From positions 6,173 to 70,172 of the forward strand of contig CAZJGG010000001.1 of the NCBI GenBank assembly GCA_964545475.1: a DNA stretch of 64,000 bases, written 5' to 3'. This DNA comes from an uncultured Eubacteriales bacterium. GTDB lineage: Bacteria; Bacillota; Clostridia; Lachnospirales; JAISER01. The notes under the pieces are model-generated. The model was given only the letters and a program-made list of their open reading frames with translations, did not search any database and was not told where the DNA came from. Positions 2,562 through 46,656 of the stretch are shown here, one piece after another (position 1 is the first letter of the stretch; each line of letters begins with the position of its first letter). The position numbers and the translations under genes are program-made.

Positions 2562-3494
2562 ATGAACGGTGGTGACGAATTGAATTTTGAAACAGAAGTT
2601 ATTTGTTTTTATGATTGGCTCGAAACAAACTCCGTGGGATCATCTTCCATCAACTTATGGTTTGCGCTATTGCATACATGGTTTAAAGCAGGATGCCCAG
2701 TAGAGTTTGCGGTGGCTATATCTGTTTTAGAAACAAAAACTGGATTAAAGAAAGATGCTATATATGATGCAAGAAATAAATTGCAACAAGTGGGAAGGGT
2801 GTTGTGGCGTGAAAGAAAGGGTAATCAATCGGCAATGTACAAAATTGTGTCTTTTATTACGACACAGACAGTTTGTATCGGAAATACCGACACAAACACC
2901 CACACGAAACCCACGCAAACACCCACGCAATACCCCACGCAAGTACCAACCATTATTAGTAGTAGTAATAGTAATATATATAATAATACTCCTACTAATA
3001 ATGTATCGGAAATACCGACACAAACACCCACGCAGACAGTTTGTATCGGAAATACCGACACAAATACCCACGGAAAGCCTTTAGAAGATGATGGTACTTG
3101 CAATCCATTTATCCACTATCAAAGGCTTTTCGGAGTATTGCGCCCATTAGCCGTAGAAGAAATTAAAGACTATTCGGCGCAAGGGCTGGAAGATAAACTT
3201 ATTTGTTTAGCAATGGACAGAAGCCACGAAAACGGCGCTGGACACTGGAATTATGCAAAAAAAATACTAGACAGATGTGTTTTTGAAAAGGTTCTAAATG
3301 TTGACGTTTTTCTAGCGAAAGAAGAAGAATTTCGGGCTAAAAAAACTATAAAAATAAACAAAGATAGTCAGCAGTCTGTAAAAAGCAAATTTGCCAATTT
3401 CTCTCAGAGAGATTGGAATTATGAAGACATTGAGCGCAAGAGTCAAGAGGCATTAATACAGGAGTTTAATAACAATATCGGTAATCAACAGTAG
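2562..3494 (+). CDS. Replisome organizer / replication initiator with C-terminal DnaD (DnaB_2) domain
   Basis: N-terminal wHTH-like region, T/Q/P-rich linker encoded by the iterons, C-terminal FIHYQRLFG...EEIKDY...GHWNYAKKILDRC DnaD-like domain. The start may instead be TTG 2580. Confidence 0.7.
   Translation: MNGGDELNFETEVICFYDWLETNSVGSSSINLWFALLHTWFKAGCPVEFAVAISVLETKTGLKKDAIYDARNKLQQVGRVLWRERKGNQSAMYKIVSFITTQTVCIGNTDTNTHTKPTQTPTQYPTQVPTIISSSNSNIYNNTPTNNVSEIPTQTPTQTVCIGNTDTNTHGKPLEDDGTCNPFIHYQRLFGVLRPLAVEEIKDYSAQGLEDKLICLAMDRSHENGAGHWNYAKKILDRCVFEKVLNVDVFLAKEEEFRAKKTIKINKDSQQSVKSKFANFSQRDWNYEDIERKSQEALIQEFNNNIGNQQ
2865..3071. repeat. Iteron-like direct repeats flanking an AT-rich block: putative phage origin of replication inside the initiator gene
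   Basis: 29-bp unit tgtatcggaaataccgacacaaaYaccca at 2873-2901, 3002-3030 and 3043-3071. Copies 1 and 3 extend to 38 bp with cagacagttt. ACCCACGCAA sub-repeats at 2909-2942. AT-rich tract at 2951-3001. Confidence 0.6.
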
Positions 3495-4320: not shown

Positions 4321-4761
4321 ATGAAACAGGAAGCAATAAAGAAAATTACTGAAAGTTTGCAGGGCATTGAGGAAAAAAGAGTTCCAGCAGAACCGATTGC
4401 AGAGTTTCTAAAAAATAAATGTGAAGATGAAGAGTTTGCCACCCTTGTTATGCAAGAACATAAAAGTCTTAAAAGATGCTTGGATTTCGTTTATGAACAG
4501 GCAAGAAAGCATTTAGACGGTGCAAACGGTTGGATTGATGATAATGACGTTTATATGATGGCCGTTGATTATTTTGCATTAGATGACGAAGAACTAGAGC
4601 GCAAAAAAGCTGAGGAAGAAAAGAAACTTGAAGAGGAACGCAAACAGCGTGATGTAGAAAAAAAGAAGAAACAAGCTGAAGAAAAGGAAAGTAAAACCAA
4701 GGAATCCAAACAACAAGCAGCTGCTAAAAAAGTTGCTGAAAATCAATTATCGCTGTTTTGA
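4321..4761 (+). CDS. PcfK-like protein with Lys/Glu-rich tail; C-terminal QLSLF
   Basis: Size, KSLKRCLDFVYEQARKH..NGW.DDNDVY..AVDYF pattern and adjacency to a PcfJ-like gene. Family assignment is from memory. Ends AENQLSLF*. Confidence 0.5.
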   Translation: MKQEAIKKITESLQGIEEKRVPAEPIAEFLKNKCEDEEFATLVMQEHKSLKRCLDFVYEQARKHLDGANGWIDDNDVYMMAVDYFALDDEELERKKAEEEKKLEEERKQRDVEKKKKQAEEKESKTKESKQQAAAKKVAENQLSLF

Positions 4762-4776
4762 TGGAGGTAATGTCAT

Positions 4777-6744
4777 TTGGATAAGAAAGAGTTAAAGCTG
4801 CTCAAGATAGAGCAGCTCCCAAACACTATTGAGACGTCGCAAATCTCTGATAGTATGAAAATTAGATATGCCTTTGTAGCAAAAAAGCATAGCCTAGGGA
4901 AAGAGCAAATATTAGAAGTAATCTTCTTTTCCCTTTATACCAAGATAGCAGAATTTAGAGTGTTTTTCAATAAAAATTTATTTATTACAGAGAAATTAAA
5001 CCCAGAACGCTGCTGGTCTGAAAGCACAATTGAAAACTTAATTTGTGCGTGGAACACCGGAATTGTATGCGCCAATGAACATTCCAAGGAGCTTATATGC
5101 AAGTATTTTAAAACGGAGGAAAATCCTTACAAAGCAATGCGAGAATTCCAGGCGAAACTAAGAAAAACACAATTAGCGCAGCGTCACAAGAAAGAGACAG
5201 ATAAAATAGATGCACATATGAAATTGATGCCAAGCCTGCCTAAATATTTTGAAAGATGGGTCAATGAAGTTGCGCTTAACAAAAGCCGGTATATCTACTA
5301 CAAAAAAGTCACCTCAAATAAGATGGAGGGTTTTTGCACATCGTGTCTTTCAAACGTTACTTATCATATTTCAAAAAACAATCAATTCAAGGACGTGCGC
5401 CACAACCAACCTGGCAAGTGCCCGTTGTGTGGCAACCGTGTTATATATAAAGCCGTAGGAAAGACGACATTACTAGTTGATTATGTTAATGCGGCTATTA
5501 TACAAAAAACTAAAAAGGGCTTGGTTGTTAGGTATTTTGCCGTAACTAAGGAATATAAGGGTCATTATAAAAACCCCACGCTTCACATCCATGAACAGGT
5601 GCGGGATTTTTATGAAGACGGTCAATGCATTACCTATGAATACAACAATTACAAGCAAACCGGGCGTTTAAGATGGTGTTACAGCGCTAATAGGTTTAAC
5701 CCTTACAATGCGTGTTTGTATACCCGAAATTTAAGGCGTGTCTTAAACGATACAGAGTGGAAATACAGCTGCATATATGAATTAGCAAAAAATATGGATA
5801 ATTTCAATGTGGACATGTACCTTAGGGCTTATAAAAATTACCCAGTATATGAATACCTTATCAGGCTTAGATTATTCAAATTGGTTGCTGAAAACACAAC
5901 GGGTTATAGGTACAACAGCGAGATTAATTTAAATGGCAACGGTATAAATGAAGTTCTGGGCATTGACAAGCTAATGCTTAAACAGCTACAGCGGATTAAT
6001 GGATCAATTGAACACTTGGCGCTTTTAAAGTTAGCCTATAAGGCGACCATATATCTAAAAGACGATGAAATAAACTGGGTGGTTAAAAATGGGGTTAATG
6101 CTGACAATTTTGTAAAATTACTTAAATACACCACGGCTCACAAGGTCATTAAATACGTCGAAAACTGTTGTGTAACAATGAAAAAACAGCTTAAAGCGGA
6201 CGATGGGTTTTTCGCATACGGAAGCCCACAAGCAAACATTGTAAACGACTGGAGAGATTATCTCGAAAATAGCGCATTACTAGGATACGACCTAAAAAAC
6301 AGTATGCTGTTATTTCCAATGGATCTAAAATCACGCCATGATGAGGTGGTAGTGCGGATTAATGCCGAAAGTAACGAGCTCTTTAACAAAGCTATTATTG
6401 AAATGTCAGAGAAACTAAACTCAAGGTTCGGATATAAGGGCAAATCTCTTATTATTTACGCACCAAGGTCCGCTGATGAAATTATAGCTGAGGGACATGC
6501 ATTGCATCATTGTGTGGGAGGCAGATTATATATTGAGGGAATGGCTAAAGGCGAACACATCATTTTGTTTATTCGCAGGGTCACTCAACCGGATGAGCCA
6601 TTTTATACAATTGAGATTAAGGATAACATTGTAAACCAGTGTCGGGGAAAAAATAACCACGGAATGACAGATGAAGTAAAGCAATTCATTTCTGAATGGC
6701 AGAAAAAGAAGCTGAAAGTTAATAAAACTGATAAAAGCGCATAA
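4777..6744 (+). CDS. PcfJ-like protein
   Basis: C-terminal EGHALHHCVGGRLYIEGMAKGEHIILFIR...PFYTIEI...IVNQCRGKNN resembles the PcfJ-like domain. CxxC...CPLCG zinc ribbon mid-protein. TTG start with GGAGG RBS. Confidence 0.6.
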   Translation: MDKKELKLLKIEQLPNTIETSQISDSMKIRYAFVAKKHSLGKEQILEVIFFSLYTKIAEFRVFFNKNLFITEKLNPERCWSESTIENLICAWNTGIVCANEHSKELICKYFKTEENPYKAMREFQAKLRKTQLAQRHKKETDKIDAHMKLMPSLPKYFERWVNEVALNKSRYIYYKKVTSNKMEGFCTSCLSNVTYHISKNNQFKDVRHNQPGKCPLCGNRVIYKAVGKTTLLVDYVNAAIIQKTKKGLVVRYFAVTKEYKGHYKNPTLHIHEQVRDFYEDGQCITYEYNNYKQTGRLRWCYSANRFNPYNACLYTRNLRRVLNDTEWKYSCIYELAKNMDNFNVDMYLRAYKNYPVYEYLIRLRLFKLVAENTTGYRYNSEINLNGNGINEVLGIDKLMLKQLQRINGSIEHLALLKLAYKATIYLKDDEINWVVKNGVNADNFVKLLKYTTAHKVIKYVENCCVTMKKQLKADDGFFAYGSPQANIVNDWRDYLENSALLGYDLKNSMLLFPMDLKSRHDEVVVRINAESNELFNKAIIEMSEKLNSRFGYKGKSLIIYAPRSADEIIAEGHALHHCVGGRLYIEGMAKGEHIILFIRRVTQPDEPFYTIEIKDNIVNQCRGKNNHGMTDEVKQFISEWQKKKLKVNKTDKSA

Positions 6745-7205: not shown

Positions 7206-7307
7206 GCTACCCCCATCAAATAGAGGCTTAAATTTAATTTAAAACATAAGTATTGCCTGAAAAGGGTTACTTACACTATTAAAAAGGTATTGTTGATTGA
7301 GGTGTTA

Positions 7308-7350
7308 TGCATGGTTAAGACAGATTTATTAGCTTTGATGTGCATGGTTA
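7308..7350. repeat. Direct repeat tgcatggtta x2 spaced 33 bp apart, in the 220-nt gap upstream of dnaN
   Basis: tgcatggtta at 7308-7317 and 7341-7350, each followed by an agat(a)tttatt-like tail. Function unknown (operator or centromere-like candidate). Confidence 0.35.
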
Positions 7351-7425
7351 TGTTGGTAAAGATATTTATTTATTTTGCAAAAATTATGTTTAAACTAGCA
7401 ATCAATAAAATAGGGGGCAACAAAG

Positions 7426-8532
7426 ATGGATATAAAAATAGAAAAAAACACGTTACTTAATGGGCTTAACATAGTTTTAAAGGCTGTCAGTTACAGTAGT
7501 GTTATGCCAATATTAAAATGCGTATTGCTTAACGTTGAGGAAAGCGGCTTAAGGCTTACAACTAATGACTTGGAATTATGCATAGAAACTAAGGCACTTG
7601 ATGCAGATATTGAACAAACAGGTAAAATAGCCGTGGAAGCAAAGCTTTTCGCTGAGATTATAAAAAAACTGCCAGATGATTATGTGCAAATATTAACAAC
7701 CGATAAGCTTGAGGTAGAAATAAAAAGCGGAAAATCAAAATTTAAAATTATGGGTCAAGACCCTGAGCAATTCCCAGCACTTCCAGAAGTTATAAAAGAC
7801 AATAAGTTTACAATTGATCAGGGAACTTTAAAAGACGTGCTAAGACAAACATGCTTTTCAATTGATGCTGAGGCACAAAAAGCAGCTTTTACCGGTGAAC
7901 TCTTCGATATTTCCAAAAGTGAAATTAACTTGGTTTCTTCCGACGGATTTAGAATATCTCATCGTAGCCTTGAAGTTGATAAGACCGACTTAACATACAG
8001 TACAATCATTCCAGGCAAATCTATAATTGATATTATGAAAATTTTAGAAACAAGCGACAGCAAGGCAAATATATACTTTGAGAAAACATATGCTCTTTTT
8101 GACCTTGAAACATGTAAAGTCATTACAAGAGTAATTGCAGCAGATTTTATTGATTACCAAAATTTTTTTAATGCTGAATATTCAACTCTTGTTAAATTGA
8201 ATACAGAAGATTTTATTAACTGCGTAGATAGAGCCTGTATTGTAGCCGAAACTAATAAAAAAACACCTGTAAAGCTGGATATAAAAGATAAAAGCATAGC
8301 TATAACATCTCAAACACAGGTTGGTAATGTTTACGAAGAAATAAATGCCGATATTGACGGCAACTGTTTAACAATCAGATTTAATCCAAGGTACTTAATG
8401 GAAGCATTAAGGGCTATCGAAGATGAAGAGGTAACGATACAGTTTAGCTCATCACTTACACCATGTATTATACGTCCTGTTGATAGCGGTAATTTTGAAT
8501 ATTTGATTCTGCCGTTAAGATTGGAAAATTAA
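7426..8532 (+). CDS. dnaN: DNA polymerase III beta subunit (sliding clamp), phage-encoded
   Basis: 368 aa, collinear with bacterial DnaN (N-terminal ..NIVLKAVS....PILKCVLL...LRLTTNDLEL.., FPALPEV, SSDGFRIS). Confidence 0.85.
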   Translation: MDIKIEKNTLLNGLNIVLKAVSYSSVMPILKCVLLNVEESGLRLTTNDLELCIETKALDADIEQTGKIAVEAKLFAEIIKKLPDDYVQILTTDKLEVEIKSGKSKFKIMGQDPEQFPALPEVIKDNKFTIDQGTLKDVLRQTCFSIDAEAQKAAFTGELFDISKSEINLVSSDGFRISHRSLEVDKTDLTYSTIIPGKSIIDIMKILETSDSKANIYFEKTYALFDLETCKVITRVIAADFIDYQNFFNAEYSTLVKLNTEDFINCVDRACIVAETNKKTPVKLDIKDKSIAITSQTQVGNVYEEINADIDGNCLTIRFNPRYLMEALRAIEDEEVTIQFSSSLTPCIIRPVDSGNFEYLILPLRLEN

Positions 8533-8550
8533 TAAACAAACCATTAAAGG

Positions 8551-8805
8551 TTGATGTTTATGGACAAATTGGACTATGCAATATTAGATGTATTGTTAAA
8601 TACTTTTGGAGCTGTTACAAGGATGAAATCTGTAACTTTAAAAGTTATTTTAACTGAAATACAAATTAATGATAGAACTCTCTATCGTAGATTAAAAAAT
8701 CTTTTGATTAGAAACTATATTTTAAAAGGCATTCAAGATATTAGAGAACACACATATTACATCAGCGAACATGGAATGAAAATATTAGAGGAGGCTTTGA
8801 AATGA
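8551..8805 (+). CDS. Small winged-HTH DNA-binding protein (TubR-like candidate)
   Basis: 84 aa wHTH-like (LKVILTEIQINDRTLYRRLKNLLIRNYI). Overlaps the downstream tubulin-like gene (translationally coupled). Confidence 0.5.
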   Translation: MMFMDKLDYAILDVLLNTFGAVTRMKSVTLKVILTEIQINDRTLYRRLKNLLIRNYILKGIQDIREHTYYISEHGMKILEEALK

Positions 8806-9836
8806 AAGAAAGTATTGGATTTATAGCTGTAGGGCAAGGCGGTGGGAATATCGGCACTCTGCTTGAAAAAAACGACTATAACGTTTTATACCTCAACACC
8901 TCACTTGAGGACTTAGATACGTTAAAAACCTCGAAATTTAAACACCACATTAAAAACGGCGAAGGCTGCAACAAAGATAGGGATAAAGCAAAAGAACTTA
9001 TCATCGGAGATTTTGAAGCCATATCAGAGCAAATTAAGTCTAAGCTTCAGGAAGAATACATCTATGTTATTTTTAGCGCAGGAGGCGGCACCGGCTCTGG
9101 TGCTTCCCCAATGCTTGTTGACTTACTCATTAATAATACTAACAAAAAAGTCGGTGCTATAACTATACTTCCTGCAAAAACAGAGCCCCTCAAAACTTAT
9201 ATTAACTCTTACGAATGCTTTAAAGAACTTGAAAGCATTGAAAATATGTGCTGTACATTTATCCTAGACAATAATACCGGAGACAAACTTTCCATTAACA
9301 AAACATTTGCAGATTTATTTGAATCATTTATTGAAATACCACAATTTAAAAGCGTTAAGGGCAATATAGATAAAGCTGAAATTAAAGAGCTCTTGTCAAC
9401 CAGGGGAGCAGCCCATATATGCAAGCTTGGCAAAACAACCAGCTCAACACCACGGCTTATAAGCACAATTAAGGAAAACATATTTGCCCCTCTTGAGCCT
9501 GATAAAGTAATAAAATACATGGGCATTTCAACCGTGACCAACATTGATACTGATGCTCTCATAAAGGAATTTGGTTCATGCTTGGACATTTACCAAAGCA
9601 CAAACCAAATACATACCGTGTGTATGCTTTGCGGTCTATCATTCCCCTACTCTACGCTAGAAACCATAAAGTCCAAAGTAATGTCTTCGCAAGATGACAT
9701 TACCCGAAATTTAAAAGCCACACAAGAAAATAAACTTGATGATGATATTAATTTTGTTAATCGTATAACCACTAACTCTACTATAGCACCAAAATCTGAT
9801 ACAAAGGATATTTTTGCAAAATACCGGCGCAAGTAA
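8802..9836 (+). CDS. Tubulin/FtsZ-superfamily GTPase (TubZ/PhuZ-like)
   Basis: GQGGGNIG (aa 11-18) and the tubulin signature GGGTGSG (aa 94-100, nt 9081-9101), followed by ILP..T and DNN loops in FtsZ/tubulin order. Confidence 0.75.
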   Translation: MKESIGFIAVGQGGGNIGTLLEKNDYNVLYLNTSLEDLDTLKTSKFKHHIKNGEGCNKDRDKAKELIIGDFEAISEQIKSKLQEEYIYVIFSAGGGTGSGASPMLVDLLINNTNKKVGAITILPAKTEPLKTYINSYECFKELESIENMCCTFILDNNTGDKLSINKTFADLFESFIEIPQFKSVKGNIDKAEIKELLSTRGAAHICKLGKTTSSTPRLISTIKENIFAPLEPDKVIKYMGISTVTNIDTDALIKEFGSCLDIYQSTNQIHTVCMLCGLSFPYSTLETIKSKVMSSQDDITRNLKATQENKLDDDINFVNRITTNSTIAPKSDTKDIFAKYRRK

Positions 9837-9856: not shown

Positions 9857-10696
9857 ATGAACAAAACAAAGATAGATTGGTGCGATATGAGTTGGAATCC
9901 TGTTACTGGATGTTTACATGATTGTACATATTGTTATGCAAAAACAATAGCTAAACGGTTTGGAGGGCACAGTGATTTTGATTATTTTATAAACCATTTG
10001 GACGAAAAAGGTAATTATGTATCTGATGAATGCAAACTCCATGTTATTGAAGATGCAATGGTGAAACAAAGCTCGGATTTGGAGGGGCGTATCGCTCCAT
10101 ATCCATTTGAGTTTGAGCCTACATTGCATAAATATAGACTAAGTGAACCTCAAAGAAAAACTAAGTCTCAGAATATTTTTGTTTGTAGTATGGCTGATTT
10201 ATTTGGTGATTGGGTGCCGGACGAGTGGATACAAGAGGTTTTTGAAACTTGCGAAGCTGCACAGCAGCATAGGTATTTATTTTTAACAAAAAATCCTAAA
10301 AGGTATTACGAAAGCATAAGCAAAATAAGATTCCCCGTTCTTCAAAATTTCTGGTTTGGCATGACAGTTACAAGTAATATAGAGCTAATACGCAATTTTA
10401 ATAATCTAGAGAGAATGAAGCCTTTCAAAACCTTTCTAAGCATTGAGCCATTACAAGAAGACATTACTCGTTTTCATGATTATAAAATTACTTTCGATTG
10501 GGTTATCATTGGCGCAGAAACCGGAAACCGAAAGGGCAAGGTTATTCCTAAAAAAGACTGGATTGATAACATTGTTAGGCAGTGTCGCAAGTATGACGTT
10601 CCTATTTTTATGAAGCGTGGCGAAAAGCAAAAAGATGGTACATATTTTATGGAAAACTTAATGGGCGCAGATTTTGTTCAGGAATTTCCGTGGTAA
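9857..10696 (+). CDS. Phage Gp37/Gp68 family protein (DUF5131), three-Cys CX3CX2C motif
   Basis: N-terminus KIDWCDMSWNPVTGCLHDCTYCYA is typical of this family. C19-x3-C23-x2-C26 lies at nt 9911-9934. Confidence 0.75.
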   Translation: MNKTKIDWCDMSWNPVTGCLHDCTYCYAKTIAKRFGGHSDFDYFINHLDEKGNYVSDECKLHVIEDAMVKQSSDLEGRIAPYPFEFEPTLHKYRLSEPQRKTKSQNIFVCSMADLFGDWVPDEWIQEVFETCEAAQQHRYLFLTKNPKRYYESISKIRFPVLQNFWFGMTVTSNIELIRNFNNLERMKPFKTFLSIEPLQEDITRFHDYKITFDWVIIGAETGNRKGKVIPKKDWIDNIVRQCRKYDVPIFMKRGEKQKDGTYFMENLMGADFVQEFPW

Positions 10697-12079: not shown

Positions 12080-13812
12080 TACCTGCTCACATGCAGAAAA
12101 ATTTAACCGCAGATTATTATTATGGGGAATTAATAGCTGAGATTAATGCTAACATGGATATAGTCAACTGGATTATCGAGGGAGAGCCTATTGTTATACA
12201 AATGGCAAAACGGATTTTCCCAGGTTCATCCGGCAGAGGTGCAGGTATTGCAAAATTCCCAAACAGCAAACGCCTAATTAAAGATTTAAACTGGCTTATG
12301 CTTAAATATCCTCTTAAAATAAAAGATTTATCACATTGGGAAAGCGCATACAGCCAAGCATTAGACTACTCAATAAAGAAAAAATCCAACGAATTTATCA
12401 CCAAAACGACACCTTCTTTGGAATTTAAAGGTGAACTAAAAGATTTTCAAAAGCAAGGTCTTACGTTTTTACTCAATAACGACAGAACGCTTCTTGCGGA
12501 CGAAATGGGCTTAGGTAAAACCATTCAGGCACTTGCCTACCTTGCAAAAGAAAAACTATATCCTGCTATTATCGTCGCACCTCCTCACTTAATTAAAAAC
12601 TGGGAAAAGGAAATAAACCGCTTTGTTAGCTTACCGGAAACTGGTCAATTAAGGCTTGGAGAAACAAATACAGACACGTCAATCCACGTAATAAAAGGGC
12701 TTAAACCTTATGAGCTCCCGGAAGCAAGCATATATTTAATTCATTACCTCTTACTTAGGGGGTGGAAGACAGAGCTTCCTACTAGAAATTTTAAAGCTGT
12801 AGTATATGATGAAATCCAAGAACTAAGGCATGGAAAGACCGAAAAATATAGTGCGGCATCTTTGCTTTCCGACTCCGCTCAAAAAGTTGTTGGGCTTAGC
12901 GGCACACCTATTTACAACAGAGGAGGCGAAATGTGGCACGTGCTTAATATCCTTGAGTATCACTGTTTAGGCGACTGGGATAGCTTTACCAGGGAATGGT
13001 GCTATGGGTATGCCTCTGATATTGTCAAAAACCCAAGCATGTTAGGAGACTATTTAAAACGTGAGGGATTAATGCTTCGCCGCCTAAAGTCGGAAGTTTT
13101 AGAAGAATTGCCGTCTAAGCACAGGGTATTGCAAACAATTGACTTCGATAACAAAAAATATGGAGAATTAATCCAAAACGCTATCGAAAAGGCGAAAAGC
13201 ATAGATTTTATGACTGACCATTTTGAAAAAGGCAGAACCACACGAGATGTTGTCAATGAAACAAGACGGGCAATAGGTGTTGCAAAATCACCATATGTTG
13301 CGGAATTTATAAAAATGCTTTTAGATGCAGGGGAAAATGTATTGTTGTTTGCTTATCACCATGATGTGTTTGATATATACCGTGAGGAACTAAAAAGATA
13401 TTCCCCTGTTGAAATAACTGGAAAGCAAACAGCCAAAGAAAAGGATATATCAGTAACAAAATTTATGGATGGGGAAACTAATATTTGCGTAATAAGCCTC
13501 CGGGCTGCCGCCGGATTAAACCTACAAAGAGCAACTTGCGTTGTGTTCGGCGAACTCGACTGGTCACCGGCGATACACTCCCAAGCCGAGGATAGGGCGC
13601 ACCGCATGGGGCAAAAGGACAGCGTTTTGTGCTATTACCTTGTTGCGGAAGAAGGTACAGACGAAGTTATACAAGAGTTCCTAGGGCTTAAAGTGGCACA
13701 GTTTAACGGCATCATGGGTGACAAAGGAGAAACCGAGGAAGATAAAGTTATAGCCCAAGGCGTTGCTACAGAGCATATGTCTAGGATTGTTGATAAATTA
13801 AAAAAGAAATGA
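12076..13812 (+). CDS. SNF2-family DEAD/DEAH-box helicase
   Basis: LADEMGLGKTIQ (motif I), YDEIQELR (DExQ, motif II), SGTPIYN, AAGLNLQ, HRMGQKDSV (motif VI). Confidence 0.85.
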   Translation: MIPAHMQKNLTADYYYGELIAEINANMDIVNWIIEGEPIVIQMAKRIFPGSSGRGAGIAKFPNSKRLIKDLNWLMLKYPLKIKDLSHWESAYSQALDYSIKKKSNEFITKTTPSLEFKGELKDFQKQGLTFLLNNDRTLLADEMGLGKTIQALAYLAKEKLYPAIIVAPPHLIKNWEKEINRFVSLPETGQLRLGETNTDTSIHVIKGLKPYELPEASIYLIHYLLLRGWKTELPTRNFKAVVYDEIQELRHGKTEKYSAASLLSDSAQKVVGLSGTPIYNRGGEMWHVLNILEYHCLGDWDSFTREWCYGYASDIVKNPSMLGDYLKREGLMLRRLKSEVLEELPSKHRVLQTIDFDNKKYGELIQNAIEKAKSIDFMTDHFEKGRTTRDVVNETRRAIGVAKSPYVAEFIKMLLDAGENVLLFAYHHDVFDIYREELKRYSPVEITGKQTAKEKDISVTKFMDGETNICVISLRAAAGLNLQRATCVVFGELDWSPAIHSQAEDRAHRMGQKDSVLCYYLVAEEGTDEVIQEFLGLKVAQFNGIMGDKGETEEDKVIAQGVATEHMSRIVDKLKKK

Positions 13813-17974: not shown

Positions 17975-18505
17975 TTGATTTATTCAGAAATTGAATTAAA
18001 TACAGCAGAAGAACAACTCAGAGAATATTTCAGATGCATTACTTTTATTCACAGATTTAAAAATAAACTTGAAGTGCTTAATAAGCAGAGAGAATCAGTT
18101 AAAAAGGAACTTAATGATATTACGTTAAGCGTACCCGAGCAAGGCGTTTGCTATAATACTGTACAGGTGCAACACTCTTATAACGGTAGTACACAGGAAA
18201 AAGCCATTGATTTAGCTTATGCAAGATTAGAAAGGCAGTTAGATAAAATAAATGAGGAAATAACAAACGTTAATATTGATATAAGAAACTTCGAATTGGA
18301 ATCTTGTGACATTAGGTGTATATTAGATATGATGGATGACGATTCTAAAATGTATATTGAATTGCGATACGACAAAAAGAAAAGCAATACTCATATATCA
18401 CAAAAATTAAACTTTTCTCCTGCAACAATAACTAGGTTGCGCATTAAAATCCTTACCGCAATATGCAACTATAGGCACTATGAAAAAACAATGAAAAAAA
18501 CATGA
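17975..18505 (+). CDS. Late-gene transcriptional regulator, sigma-70 region-4-like / ArpU-RinA-type
   Basis: C-terminal HTH (SNTHISQKLNFSPATITRLRIKIL). Sits immediately upstream of the terminase genes. GGGGGCGAAAGC RBS with TTG start. Confidence 0.55.
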   Translation: MIYSEIELNTAEEQLREYFRCITFIHRFKNKLEVLNKQRESVKKELNDITLSVPEQGVCYNTVQVQHSYNGSTQEKAIDLAYARLERQLDKINEEITNVNIDIRNFELESCDIRCILDMMDDDSKMYIELRYDKKKSNTHISQKLNFSPATITRLRIKILTAICNYRHYEKTMKKT

Positions 18506-18523
18506 AAGAAATGTGAGCAATAA

Positions 18524-18553
18524 TTGATTAAAAGATGATTAAAGATTGATTAC
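18524..18553. repeat. Tandem (T)TGATTAAA(A)GA repeats (2.5 copies)
   Basis: ttgattaaaaga tgattaaaga ttgatta, read directly from the sequence. Lies between the late regulator and terS. Confidence 0.5.
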
Positions 18554-18633
18554 TTATTAAATAAATTATGTGGTAAGATTGTATCATAAGAAAAAGGCTT
18601 AGAAAGAAGCCCCCTCTTTATACTTTTTCTTTA

Positions 18634-18664
18634 ACGTCAGGTTTGCGCCTGGCGTTTTTATTTT
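18634..18664 (+). terminator. Rho-independent terminator upstream of terS
   Basis: acgtcagg-tttgcg-cctggcgt (8-bp stem with one G.U pair) followed by ttttatttt. Confidence 0.55.
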
Positions 18665-43400: not shown

Positions 43401-43856
43401 ATGATGTCAAACAATATAGCGACAAGAGGCGCAATAGCGTCTTTTCTTTTTGTGCTTAGTTATTTATACAATTGCATTGGCACTATGGTTATCGTACTTG
43501 CGTTTGCAATGGCGTTAGACTATATTACAGGGCTTGCAGCGGCATATACTCTAAAGGAAATAAACAGTAAGACAGGCATTATCGGAATAATAAAAAAGGT
43601 ATGTTATATAATTCTGCTATTTATGGCTTTCTTGTTTGATCTAGCAATCGGCTATTTATTAGATGATTTAGGCATACAAATGCCAATACGAGAGATTTTC
43701 GGCGTTATGACGACATGCTGGTTGTTTGCAAATGAAGGTATAAGTATATTTGAAAACCTCATAAAGTTAGGAGTACCTGTGCCGGAGTTTCTGCAAAAAG
43801 GATTCAAACATTTAAAACAGTCCATAGATGATAAAGCTAACAAGGGGGGGTGCTGA
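43401..43856 (+). CDS. Holin (phage_holin_4_1 / toxin-secretion holin family)
   Basis: LDYITGLAAA and NEGISIFENLIKLGVPVPEFL family motifs. 3-4 TM segments. Immediately precedes the endolysin. Confidence 0.8.
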   Translation: MMSNNIATRGAIASFLFVLSYLYNCIGTMVIVLAFAMALDYITGLAAAYTLKEINSKTGIIGIIKKVCYIILLFMAFLFDLAIGYLLDDLGIQMPIREIFGVMTTCWLFANEGISIFENLIKLGVPVPEFLQKGFKHLKQSIDDKANKGGC

Positions 43857-43858
43857 TA

Positions 43859-44503
43859 TTGATAAATAGTAGGAATATCACAGACCTCCACCCTACGTTG
43901 CAGAGGGCGGCAACCGAGCTGATGAGGCGTTGCCAGTCTGAAAATTTGCCTATATTAATAACACAAACATACCGGGACAAAGAGTATCAAGATGACCTTT
44001 ATTCACAGGGGCGCACAAAACCCGGTTCAATAGTTACAAATAGCAAGGGTGGTCAATCCATGCATAATTATCGGATCGCCTTTGACTTCTGCAAAAACCT
44101 TAAAGGGCATGAATTTGATGATGCAATTTTTTTCACAAAGGTTGGAAAGATTTGGCGAGATATGGGCGGCGTTTGGGGCGGCGACTGGACAAAATTTATT
44201 GACAAACCGCATTGTGAGTTTACAAATGGATTGACACTCACGCAATTACAAAAAGGCATAACAATGCCAAATGAGACTAGGATGAAATGGGAGGAAAATA
44301 ATATGGCTGAAATCAAGTTAGATATAAACGGTAAAAAGGTAACTATACCTGGAGATAATATAAACGGTACAAATATGGTTAAGTTAAAGGACTTGTCGGT
44401 TATCATTCCTAATGAAGTAGTACCAATTCGATCCATATTCGAAGCGGCAGGGTATTCTGTGGGCTGGAACGGCAACACCGGAACAATAGAATTAAAAAAA
44501 TAG
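43859..44503 (+). CDS. Endolysin: peptidase M15 (VanY/L-Ala-D-Glu peptidase-like) with a C-terminal Cu-amine-oxidase-N-like wall-binding domain
   Basis: [20 protein letters not shown]...[11 protein letters not shown]...[13 protein letters not shown] (H, D, H zinc ligands). C-terminal INGKKV...[25 protein letters not shown]. The start is TTG 43859 or GTG 43850. Confidence 0.8.
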
Positions 44504-44506
44504 GAA

Positions 44507-44546
44507 CCCCCGTTATTGACAACAAACCAAATGACGGGGGATTTTT
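44507..44546 (+). terminator. Putative terminator after the endolysin
   Basis: cccccgt (44507-13) pairs with acggggg (44534-40) across a 20-nt loop, then attttta. The large loop lowers confidence. Confidence 0.45.
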
Positions 44547-44619
44547 ATGCCCTGACAAATTAAAAACGATACTTAAAGGCCTTAATTGGCGCAATATTAA
44601 CGATGCCCTGATAGATGAG

Positions 44620-45081
44620 ATGTATTCCTGCATAATGCGTTTTGAGATTAATAATCCAGAGCGCATTTATCATTTTGTAAGCCAATGTGCACATGAAAGT
44701 GGATTGGGTTTATACAAAAAGGAAATTGCTTCAGGAGATGCCTATGAAGGACGCAAAGACCTAGGTAATATACTGCCAGGAGATGGCAAGAAATACAAAG
44801 GAGCTGGATATCTGCAAATGACTGGGCGCTCTAATTATCAGCGCTTTGCTAATTTCGTTAACGACCAACAAGTAATGGAGGGCGTTGATTATGTAGCTGC
44901 CATGTATCCATGGACAAGTGCTGGGTTTTGGTGGCATCGCAACAACATGAATGCTCTGTGTGATAATGTTGTAAAACTTGACATAGTACAAAAGGTTACT
45001 GCCGTGACTAAAAAAGTAAACGGAGGTACCAACGGACTTAATGAGCGTTTGAAATTTTACATGCTATGCAATGAGAAGTAA
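44620..45081 (+). CDS. GH19-family (chitinase-like) muramidase, second lysin; N-terminus unresolved
   Basis: [17 protein letters not shown]...YEGRKDLGN...[15 protein letters not shown] matches phage GH19 lysins. Homologous-looking sequence continues upstream of the first ATG. Confidence 0.65.
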
Positions 45082-46585: not shown

Positions 46586-46656
46586 AGCGGGTGATGGGAA
46601 TCGAACCCACGCATCCAGCTTGGAAGGCTGGTGTTCTACCATTGAACCACACCCGC
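46586..46656 (-). tRNA. tRNA-Gly (anticodon UCC)
   Basis: Reverse complement GCGGGTG-TG-GTTC-AATGGTA-GAAC-A-CCAGC-CTTCCAA-GCTGG-ATGC-GTGGG-TTCGATT-CCCAT-CACCCGC-T folds as a cloverleaf. No CCA is encoded. Confidence 0.9.

Follow-up and report, generated by a model that had tools for sequence, protein, structure and literature searches.

A c-st-type tubRZ cassette without a canonical upstream centromere in a chromosomally integrated prophage of an uncultured Eubacteriales bacterium

The 64,000-nt stretch of DNA analysed here (the window; positions 6,173 to 70,172 of contig CAZJGG010000001.1, assembly GCA_964545475.1, of an uncultured Eubacteriales bacterium) contains a two-gene tubRZ cassette, which encodes a tubulin/FtsZ-fold GTPase of the c-st TubZ clade together with its winged-helix adaptor TubR. 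The cassette is part of a prophage that is integrated in the bacterial chromosome beside a tRNA-Gly gene, and it belongs to a large, uncharacterised family of TubRZ systems in integrated prophages. About 80% of the related loci possess an array of short direct repeats (iterons) at the canonical position of the centromere tubC, upstream of tubR; the window copy lacks this canonical tubC. A preliminary description of the window, made from its letters, had recognised the tubulin-like gene and its partner, but it could not see the large family of tubRZC loci in integrated prophages, the canonical upstream centromere of its members or the loss of this centromere here. As far as homology can tell, the identification of the two genes is solid, and their context is unusual. 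Descriptions of tubulin-based DNA segregation in the accessible literature are confined to Bacillus and Clostridium plasmids, the phage c-st and the PhuZ proteins of jumbo phages, and phage tubulins are discussed in full-text articles only as c-st-type partition proteins or as PhuZ.

The tubZ gene (8802-9836; all features lie on the forward strand unless stated otherwise) codes for a protein of 344 amino acids. The T1 nucleotide-binding loop GQGGGN (8832-8849), which is part of the segment GQGGGNIG at residues 11 to 18, and the T4 tubulin signature GGGTGSG (9081-9101, residues 94 to 100) can be read directly from its sequence and follow each other in the order known from FtsZ and tubulin. The preliminary description had proposed a TubZ-like protein on these grounds, and Pfam and structure comparisons agree with it. 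The protein exceeds the thresholds of two Pfam families, Tubulin (50.4 bits, cut-off 33) and TubZ_C_3 (59.1 bits, cut-off 27), which settles the comparison with hidden Markov models that had been proposed as a check. Its nearest solved structures are those of TubZ from c-st, the plasmid-prophage of Clostridium botulinum (PDB entries 4xcq, E = 5.5e-38, and 3v3t, E = 3.5e-37), to which it aligns over the full length with around 30% identity; weaker matches were obtained to CetZ (9e-10), FtsZ (1e-7 or worse) and Bacillus RepX/TubZ (3.5e-4).

The structure prediction that had likewise been suggested as a check points to the same clade. An AlphaFold2 model of TubZ, built with 32 family members in the alignment, reached a mean predicted local distance difference test score (pLDDT) of 86.8 and a predicted template modelling (TM) score of 0.86, and a Foldseek search with this model returned a tubulin/TubZ-like fold with c-st TubZ (3v3t/4xcq) on top (E = 7e-28, TM-score 0.88-0.89, root-mean-square deviation 2.6 Å), followed by CetZ, Bacillus TubZ and FtsZ. 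In the 32-sequence family alignment, residues G11, Q12 and N16 of the T1 loop and G94, G95, G96, G98, S99 and G100 of the T4 signature are invariant, as is a GxxDxxE segment (G187, D190, E193); altogether, all 58 family-invariant residues are present in the window copy. The latter segment is the T7-loop-like GNIDKAE (9360-9380), which aligns to GVVDEDE of c-st TubZ and whose acidic residues are, by analogy with FtsZ and tubulin, expected to activate guanosine triphosphate (GTP) hydrolysis in the polymer. According to the model and the family alignment, TubZ ends in a flexible C-terminal tail (9729-9833) with the terminal sequence DIFAKYRRK. Residues 310 to 332 are predicted to be disordered (pLDDT below 50) and to be followed by a short terminal helix formed by residues 334 to 341. 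The C-terminal consensus of the family is DIFxKYxxK, and the terminus of c-st TubZ, ...DFFSKYM, is similar.

Two other tubulin-like groups were considered for the protein and rejected. PhuZ membership is contradicted by several observations: the PHROG family of PhuZ, phrog_4733, matches the N-terminal domain of TubZ only (4e-9), PhuZ of phage Goslar appears at rank 39 of the Foldseek list, the tail is basic (RRK), a TubR is present and the phage is mid-sized. The best-matching PHROG is the unannotated phrog_17961 (4e-38). Membership of the FtsZ or CetZ families was dismissed as well, as the E values of these matches are 9e-10 or higher versus 5e-38 for TubZ, and the gene lies in a phage early module. 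The suggestion that the c-st TubZRC system rather than PhuZ is the closest relative is thus upheld by profile searches, PDB matches and Foldseek alike.

TubR is encoded directly upstream of tubZ (8560-8805). The open reading frame (ORF) is also open from a TTG at 8551, which gave rise to the length of 84 amino acids stated in the preliminary description; however, the ATG at 8560 (MDKLDY...) is most likely the start codon, since the family proteins have their N-termini at this point, the gene predictions made on independent contigs begin there too and an AAAGG sequence precedes it by 9 nt. This leaves a protein of 81 amino acids. The further claim of a translationally coupled winged helix-turn-helix protein holds: the tubR stop codon TGA (8803-8805) overlaps the tubZ start codon ATG (8802-8804) by 4 nt in the sequence ATGA, and a GGAGG is found 7 nt before the tubZ ATG. 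TubR by itself has no Pfam match. A profile built from 27 partner proteins encoded upstream of tubZ in related loci, however, matches PDB entry 6tey, "DNA-binding protein TubR", with an E value of 1.6e-16; the chain sequence of this entry is that of c-st CST190. The same profile also reaches TubR of B. megaterium (4asn, E = 2.5e-4) and PadR-type winged-helix proteins, and hhalign (HH-suite) assigned TubR with a probability of 98.7% over 77 of the 81 residues. A structure model of TubR computed from the single sequence was too poor (pLDDT 55) and was not used, so that the assignment rests on the two profile methods. The protein resembles c-st TubR in its small size and in having no counterpart of the N-terminal dimerisation helix that the Bacillus proteins possess, and it is the sole TubR-like ORF in the 64 kb. 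Taken together, the two proteins are almost certainly TubZ and TubR.

The cassette is located in a prophage. From position 1 to around 46.4 kb, the window consists of a single co-directional phage genome. Its early genes encode RecT, a protein with a metallo-β-lactamase (MBL) fold, an HNH nuclease, a DnaD-like initiator, a methyltransferase, PcfK/PcfJ-like proteins, DnaN, TubR, TubZ, a DUF5131 protein and an SNF2 helicase; these are followed by the late genes for a regulator, the terminase subunits (terS and terL), portal, major head, sheath, tape measure and baseplate proteins, a holin and an endolysin. The prophage is apparently intact, contractile-tailed and temperate, and the phage has a size of at least 50 kb. 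The tubRZ genes are part of the co-directional early/replication operon, in which tubR starts 27 nt past the stop codon of dnaN (7426-8532), the gene for the phage β sliding clamp. The clamp, already listed in the preliminary description, was confirmed by matches to all three DNA_pol3_beta domains and to phrog_947. No promoter-like site was found in the gap between dnaN and tubR, and dnaN is probably co-transcribed with tubRZ.

From 46.6 kb onwards, the genes are chromosomal: they comprise tRNA-Gly(TCC), a deoxyinosine glycosylase, a two-component system, alaS, aspA and a LysR regulator, and AlaS scores 964 bits against its equivalog model. The tRNA-Gly(TCC) gene, which was identified by ARAGORN on the reverse strand (46586-46656), marks the right boundary between prophage and chromosome. 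The contiguity with housekeeping genes, which had been noticed before, is also seen in independent data, since TubZ and AlaS are recorded on one 92.8-kb NCBI contig, and two contigs, each from a further sample, are identical to the phage end and break off at position 46612, 27 nt inside the tRNA gene. An alternative circular junction was not seen in the independent assemblies. The prophage is integrated in the chromosome beside tRNA-Gly, and the tubRZ sequence of the window recurs without change in the assemblies of three or more samples. The shared stop of the two independent contigs at 46612 marks a repeat boundary, which could be an att core or the end of a multi-copy tRNA sequence; tRNA-Gly(TCC) and its own terminator hairpin are intact beside the phage end (46553-46656). 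No second att copy was found in the window or in the related locus L085, and a look-up of the host gene that adjoins the junction returned no record. To the left of the window, a further 3.8 kb could be recovered, which still consists of early phage genes (HTH_17, AAA ATPase and RecT) and contains no integrase or repressor gene. Megablast of 25 kb of the phage against 50,697 phage records yielded no match, and no relatives were found when phages sharing its terS were sought in IMG/VR.

Relatives of TubZ are numerous, with at least 644 in the protein collection. In species-representative genomes, 98 TubZ loci were detected, nearly all of them in Lachnospirales or other Clostridia, and at least 80 loci are present on IMG/VR viral contigs of around 20 to 70 kb. 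The relatives reside in mid-sized prophages; three of them are located in closed chromosomes, namely that of a Cellulosilyticum (4.85 Mb) and those of two Anaerocolumna (6.4 and 6.8 Mb), and the contigs are longer than 100 kb for 32 of the 80 genome loci listed. The nearest TubZ among the species representatives is found in a metagenome-assembled genome of the Defluviitaleaceae (68%). In 72,556 plasmids and 50,697 phage records, there is nothing closer to TubZ than around 33% identity. According to phmmer, 74 of 81 loci encode a homologous partner of 80 to 90 amino acids immediately before tubZ, and the profile adds two more; most of the loci with a partner show the 4-nt overlap of tubR and tubZ. 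In the closest relative, locus L086 (72% TubZ identity), the gene order dnaN-tubR-tubZ is the same. Other neighbours of the pair are not conserved among the relatives, and tubRZ thus behaves as a mobile two-gene cassette of phage early regions. A DUF5131 protein with a CxxxCxxC start resembling that of radical S-adenosylmethionine proteins is encoded directly downstream of tubZ in the window (9857-10696) and members of this family also occur 6 to 9 kb downstream of tubZ in 11 relatives, which makes it a common phage early gene and not part of the cassette.

Several variations were observed among the relatives. In 69 of 145 related loci, a short tyrosine-recombinase gene is present downstream of tubZ, mostly co-directional with it and at a median distance of around 5.7 kb counted from the tubZ start; in locus L004, this gene (12513-13142, around 209 amino acids) sits just before the packaging genes. 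No short tyrosine recombinase was found in the window. In four loci (L048, L049, L059 and L063), a protein of 126 to 166 amino acids with a hydrophobic N-terminus replaces TubR directly upstream of tubZ (around 250-500 nt upstream), and an iteron array is situated farther upstream (-715 to -833 relative to the tubZ start). Just downstream of tubZ, around +1200 nt from its start, weak MerR/TubY-like matches were seen in L049, L059, L064 and L066. A sub-clade from IMG/VR with 36% TubZ identity (L161-L170) carries arrays with a TCCGAG core on both sides of tubRZ; the second array lies right behind the tubZ stop codon (about +1068 to +1138 relative to the tubZ start), and the two arrays make up a bipartite centromere on either side of the operon.

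In all characterised systems, tubC consists of direct repeats and is located "always upstream" of tubR (PMC6009700). Arrays were scored as the fraction of bases that are identical at a lag of 10 to 11 nt in windows of 60 nt, and this was done for 145 non-redundant loci; across the 64 kb of the window, the 99.99th percentile of the score is 0.667. Upstream of tubR, the score is at least 0.65 in 91 loci and between 0.55 and 0.65 in 25 more, so that 116 of the 145 loci (around 80%) carry an array there, a count that leaves out about nine low-scoring loci with an array a few hundred nt further upstream and is affected by the under-scoring of 20-nt two-iteron types. The array in this canonical zone is the best one within 10 kb on either side in 102 of the 145 loci. 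The iterons of the relatives have a period of 10 nt and comprise ATCAGAGnnA units in 8 to 10 copies, nnTGAAAnn units in 6 to 7 copies and ATAAAA-type units; some relatives alternate TATGAAA and TAATCCG units, which recalls the two iteron types of c-st.

In the window, the canonical tubC position is the dnaN-tubR junction (8533-8559), which measures 27 nt and contains no iterons. Its score of 0.38-0.40 corresponds to the background and is among the lowest of the 145 loci. The statement that no centromere array lies directly upstream of the winged-helix gene was therefore correct. The corresponding junction of L086 is 103 nt long and contains seven or eight iterons of the (C/T)TATGA(G/A)A type with TGA cores exactly 10 nt apart, and a pairwise alignment of both loci places a gap of around 75 nt in the window at this junction. 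The window is thereby a natural centromere-deletion variant, which together with the array-bearing L086 forms a pair for probing the contribution of tubC.

Two other sites of the window were considered as substitutes. The stronger candidate for a displaced tubC is an array at 18478-18554, 9.7 kb downstream. It is made up of three units of the ATGAAA type, one ATGTGA and three units of the TGATTA type, and the TGA cores of these seven units (18481-18547) follow each other at a spacing of exactly 11 nt. Its score of 0.683 is the highest reached by any helical-period array of the window, and no other array there is comparable; in 100 random sequences of the same composition, the maximum score averaged 0.525 ± 0.026 and never exceeded 0.633. 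The run of TGA cores is also the longest exact-phase trinucleotide run in the window (random sequences: mean 4, maximum 6), and this is the only place where the core of the clade, ATGA[AG]A, occurs three times in 45 nt (0.17 expected per 64 kb). A precedent for a period of 11 nt is the high-affinity part of c-st tubC, in which TTGAC is repeated with 6-nt spacers (PMC6009700). The array overlaps the stop codon of the regulator gene (17975-18505, phrog_36) around 200 nt upstream of terS and is followed by a terminator-like hairpin at around 18636-18660. Judged by these sequence features, it might be a TubR site, a possibility to which we assign clearly less than an even chance; a role as a packaging (pac/cos) or late-promoter element is a serious alternative.

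The second site is the pair of TGCATGGTTA repeats (7303-7350), at a distance of 33 nt from each other in the 220-nt gap that precedes dnaN, which the preliminary description had named as the nearest centromere candidate. The gap (7206-7425) is the nearest sizeable non-coding region upstream of the operon, and an exact pair of 10-mers within one gap of 220 nt is unlikely to occur by chance (estimate around 0.02). The repeat itself is real. However, there are two copies only, none of the TGA, ATCAGA or TAATCC-type cores of any relative is present, the periodicity score is at background, and two-copy repeats are typical of operators. We consider it very unlikely that the pair is the tubC of this cassette and rate it below the array at 18478-18554; an operator or promoter element is the more likely interpretation of its sequence.

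These observations raise the question of why an element that is inherited with the chromosome carries a segregation motor. The simplest answer would be a role after induction, in the replication or positioning of phage DNA. There is a precedent in CGP3, an integrated prophage of Corynebacterium glutamicum, which encodes the filament former AlpC and a co-transcribed adaptor AlpA that binds repeats (alpS) upstream of the operon; AlpAC is induced early after prophage induction, is required for the phage DNA to replicate efficiently and raises its copy number about two-fold (PMC4446434). In an analogous manner, tubRZ would be transcribed together with the replication genes for RecT, the DnaD-like initiator and DnaN after induction or infection, and not during lysogeny. 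TubZ would then assemble with GTP into dynamic filaments, TubR would coat repeated sites of the phage genome once this has been excised and is being replicated, and the conserved C-terminal tail of TubZ would couple the TubR-coated DNA to the filament, which in turn would move or position the phage DNA for efficient replication, packaging or both. Without the canonical array, TubR would have to use another site in the window phage, or the system would run untethered; the best candidate for such an alternative site would be the seven-unit, 11-nt array at 18478-18554.

The consistent placement of the family in chromosomes, the preservation of the catalytic and tail motifs and the CGP3 precedent suggest this account of post-induction positioning. 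A role in the lytic cycle in particular is suggested by the position of the cassette in an early operon directly behind dnaN, without a promoter or centromere of its own, and this context favours it over plasmid-like maintenance; neither can be proved from the context. Taken as a whole, we regard the mechanistic account as only slightly better than an even proposition, and several points weigh against it. The canonical cis site is missing, so that this cassette may not tether DNA at all, and the left prophage end with the integrase and repressor genes lies beyond the recovered sequence, so that inducibility is assumed. The array upstream of tubR in the relatives has an autoregulation-style, plasmid-like arrangement, which is compatible with expression in a plasmid-like state. 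As for the candidate site at 18478-18554, its period is 11 nt versus 10 nt in the arrays of the family, the secondary arrays of relatives (9 of 85) are located immediately after tubZ and never kilobases away, and the site lies where a pac/cos site or a late promoter is also expected. In its boldest form, the proposal would be that a complete tubRZC "mini-spindle" is widespread among mid-sized, integrated temperate phages of gut Clostridia, that it serves to move or organise replicating phage genomes after induction and not plasmid inheritance, and that the centromere has been relocated in the window phage from the tubR promoter to the early/late boundary by the packaging genes; this version is rather unlikely, but if it is true, a centromere beside the packaging genes would link DNA positioning to packaging.

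The tubRZ pair could instead serve a facultative episome, i.e., the phage might also persist as a low-copy circular plasmid in a state of pseudolysogeny or unstable lysogeny, as c-st does, and TubRZ would partition it at cell division. Every TubZRC system characterised so far serves a plasmid or the plasmid-prophage c-st, the plasmid-style tubC array of the relatives overlaps the likely promoter, and the co-directional short tyrosine recombinase of 69 of the 145 relatives is reminiscent of plasmid-prophages, which use such enzymes for dimer resolution. In addition, partition systems that serve the excised form have been described in integrative and conjugative elements (ICEs). However, every long contig places the family in chromosomes, PLSDB contains no family member with more than 40% identity, and the independent assemblies display the integrated junction and no other. 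The cassette of the window is moreover embedded in a lytic early operon, lacks its own centromere and promoter and is not accompanied by a recombinase gene, and we therefore regard the episome as improbable. That the cassette is an orphan in an early stage of decay appears a little less probable still. According to this explanation, the deletion of tubC at the dnaN-tubR junction ended DNA tethering, and the genes, now functionless, are intact only because the loss is recent. Around 75 nt of iterons that are present in L086 are indeed missing, the array score is among the lowest of all loci and a TubY is absent; yet both genes are full length and coupled, the 58 invariant TubZ residues are retained, the sequence is identical in assemblies from at least three samples, and a statistically unusual array with the iteron core of the clade exists elsewhere in the phage (18478-18554).

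The missing cis site could also be taken to mean that the system has a host-directed role or another role outside DNA segregation: TubZ might perturb FtsZ and cell division, or might organise a site of replication or assembly without binding of phage DNA, and TubR would mainly be a transcription factor. The profile matches of the TubR family to PadR-type and other winged-helix regulators fit this idea, and PhuZ is a phage tubulin that can work without a TubR-like adaptor. On the other hand, the strict pairing of TubR with TubZ and the family-wide iteron arrays indicate DNA tethering, and the C-terminal motif shared with c-st TubZ fits contacts to an adaptor or between filaments; this explanation is thus highly improbable. 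Under post-induction positioning of phage DNA, the preferred reading, the concept of a phage cytoskeleton would be extended from jumbo phages to common temperate phages of the gut.

Apart from the cassette, the phage carries several features that deserve mention. The preliminary description had assigned it an origin of its own, and an origin-like element was found: around five tandem copies of the 12-nt unit AAACACCCACGC are located at 2882-2942, inside the DnaD/DnaB_2-like gene (2562-3494). By analogy with lambdoid phages, whose iterons lie within the initiator gene, this array is probably the replication origin of the phage. The gene for the MBL-fold protein (1201-1902), which adjoins recT, matches the anti-Pycsar nuclease Apyc1 weakly in the precomputed Pfam annotation of an identical Logan contig and may be an anti-defence gene. 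A pair of PcfK-like and PcfJ-like genes, whose families are named for genes of the conjugative plasmid pCF10, is present in the early region (4321-6744). After the holin gene, two different lysis enzymes are encoded side by side (43850-45081). The first (43850-44503) is an endolysin of the VanY/Peptidase_M15 type that carries a C-terminal extension, and the other (44620-45081) is lysozyme- or chitinase-like as judged by eye only.

Chromosomal type III genes have been glimpsed before, as one paper mentions a chromosomal TubY in some Clostridia. A survey of 200 ICEs listed type I and type II partition systems but no type III system. IME8 was considered as a precedent for a tubZ gene in an integrated element and rejected, since its tubZ marks a plasmid.

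The closest known counterpart is the TubZRC(Y) system of the C. botulinum phage c-st, which consists of TubZ (CST189), TubR (CST190), tubC and TubY (CST188). Both systems are phage-borne and have the gene order tubR-tubZ; TubZ is homologous over its full length with a TM-score of 0.89, TubR is short and devoid of the N-terminal dimerisation helix, and the TubZ proteins share the C-terminal motif D-[IF]-F-x-K-Y, in the window copy as part of a tail that is predicted to be disordered. The upstream iteron centromere of c-st, in some cases with two iteron types, is found again in the relatives. Unlike the phage described here, c-st is a plasmid-prophage of 186 kb, whereas the window phage is chromosomal; c-st has a tubC of around 500 nt upstream of tubR instead of 27 nt without iterons, and its tubR and tubZ genes are separated by 18 nt instead of overlapping by 4 nt. 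A tblastn search of the window with c-st CST188 gave nothing at E values of up to 10, and the neighbours of tubRZ are dnaN and the DUF5131 gene. The locus thus combines a TubZ with GGGTGSG signature and TubZ-type C-terminal domain and a translationally coupled TubR encoded upstream, as in type III partition systems, with a chromosomal rather than an autonomously replicating setting, and its relatives are found in closed chromosomes as well. Since an upstream tubC, TubY and an autonomous replicon are all lacking, it is classified as a variant and not as a standard member of type III.

More distant are the TubZRC systems of the Bacillus plasmids pBtoxis, pXO1 (RepX), pBM400 and pBsph, which likewise combine a tubulin GTPase with a winged-helix adaptor and a centromere of direct repeats (TM-score around 0.7), and a TubZ relative was deposited as plasmid replication protein RepX (4ei7). 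They differ in being plasmid-borne, in their low identity (15-17% in structural alignments), in their longer TubZ and in a dimeric TubR with extra helices. PhuZ (phiKZ TubZ) of the jumbo phages is also a phage tubulin, positions phage DNA during lytic growth and is weakly similar in its GTPase domain; however, it has neither a TubR adaptor nor a centromere, possesses an acidic C-terminal "knuckle" instead of a basic RRK tail, and occurs in phages of more than 200 kb that build a phage nucleus (PMC3678025), whereas the window phage is mid-sized. AlpAC of CGP3 finally is analogous but not homologous, as AlpC is actin-like and CGP3 is a cryptic prophage of an actinobacterium; if tubRZ indeed acts after induction, it would be the tubulin counterpart of the CGP3 AlpAC system.

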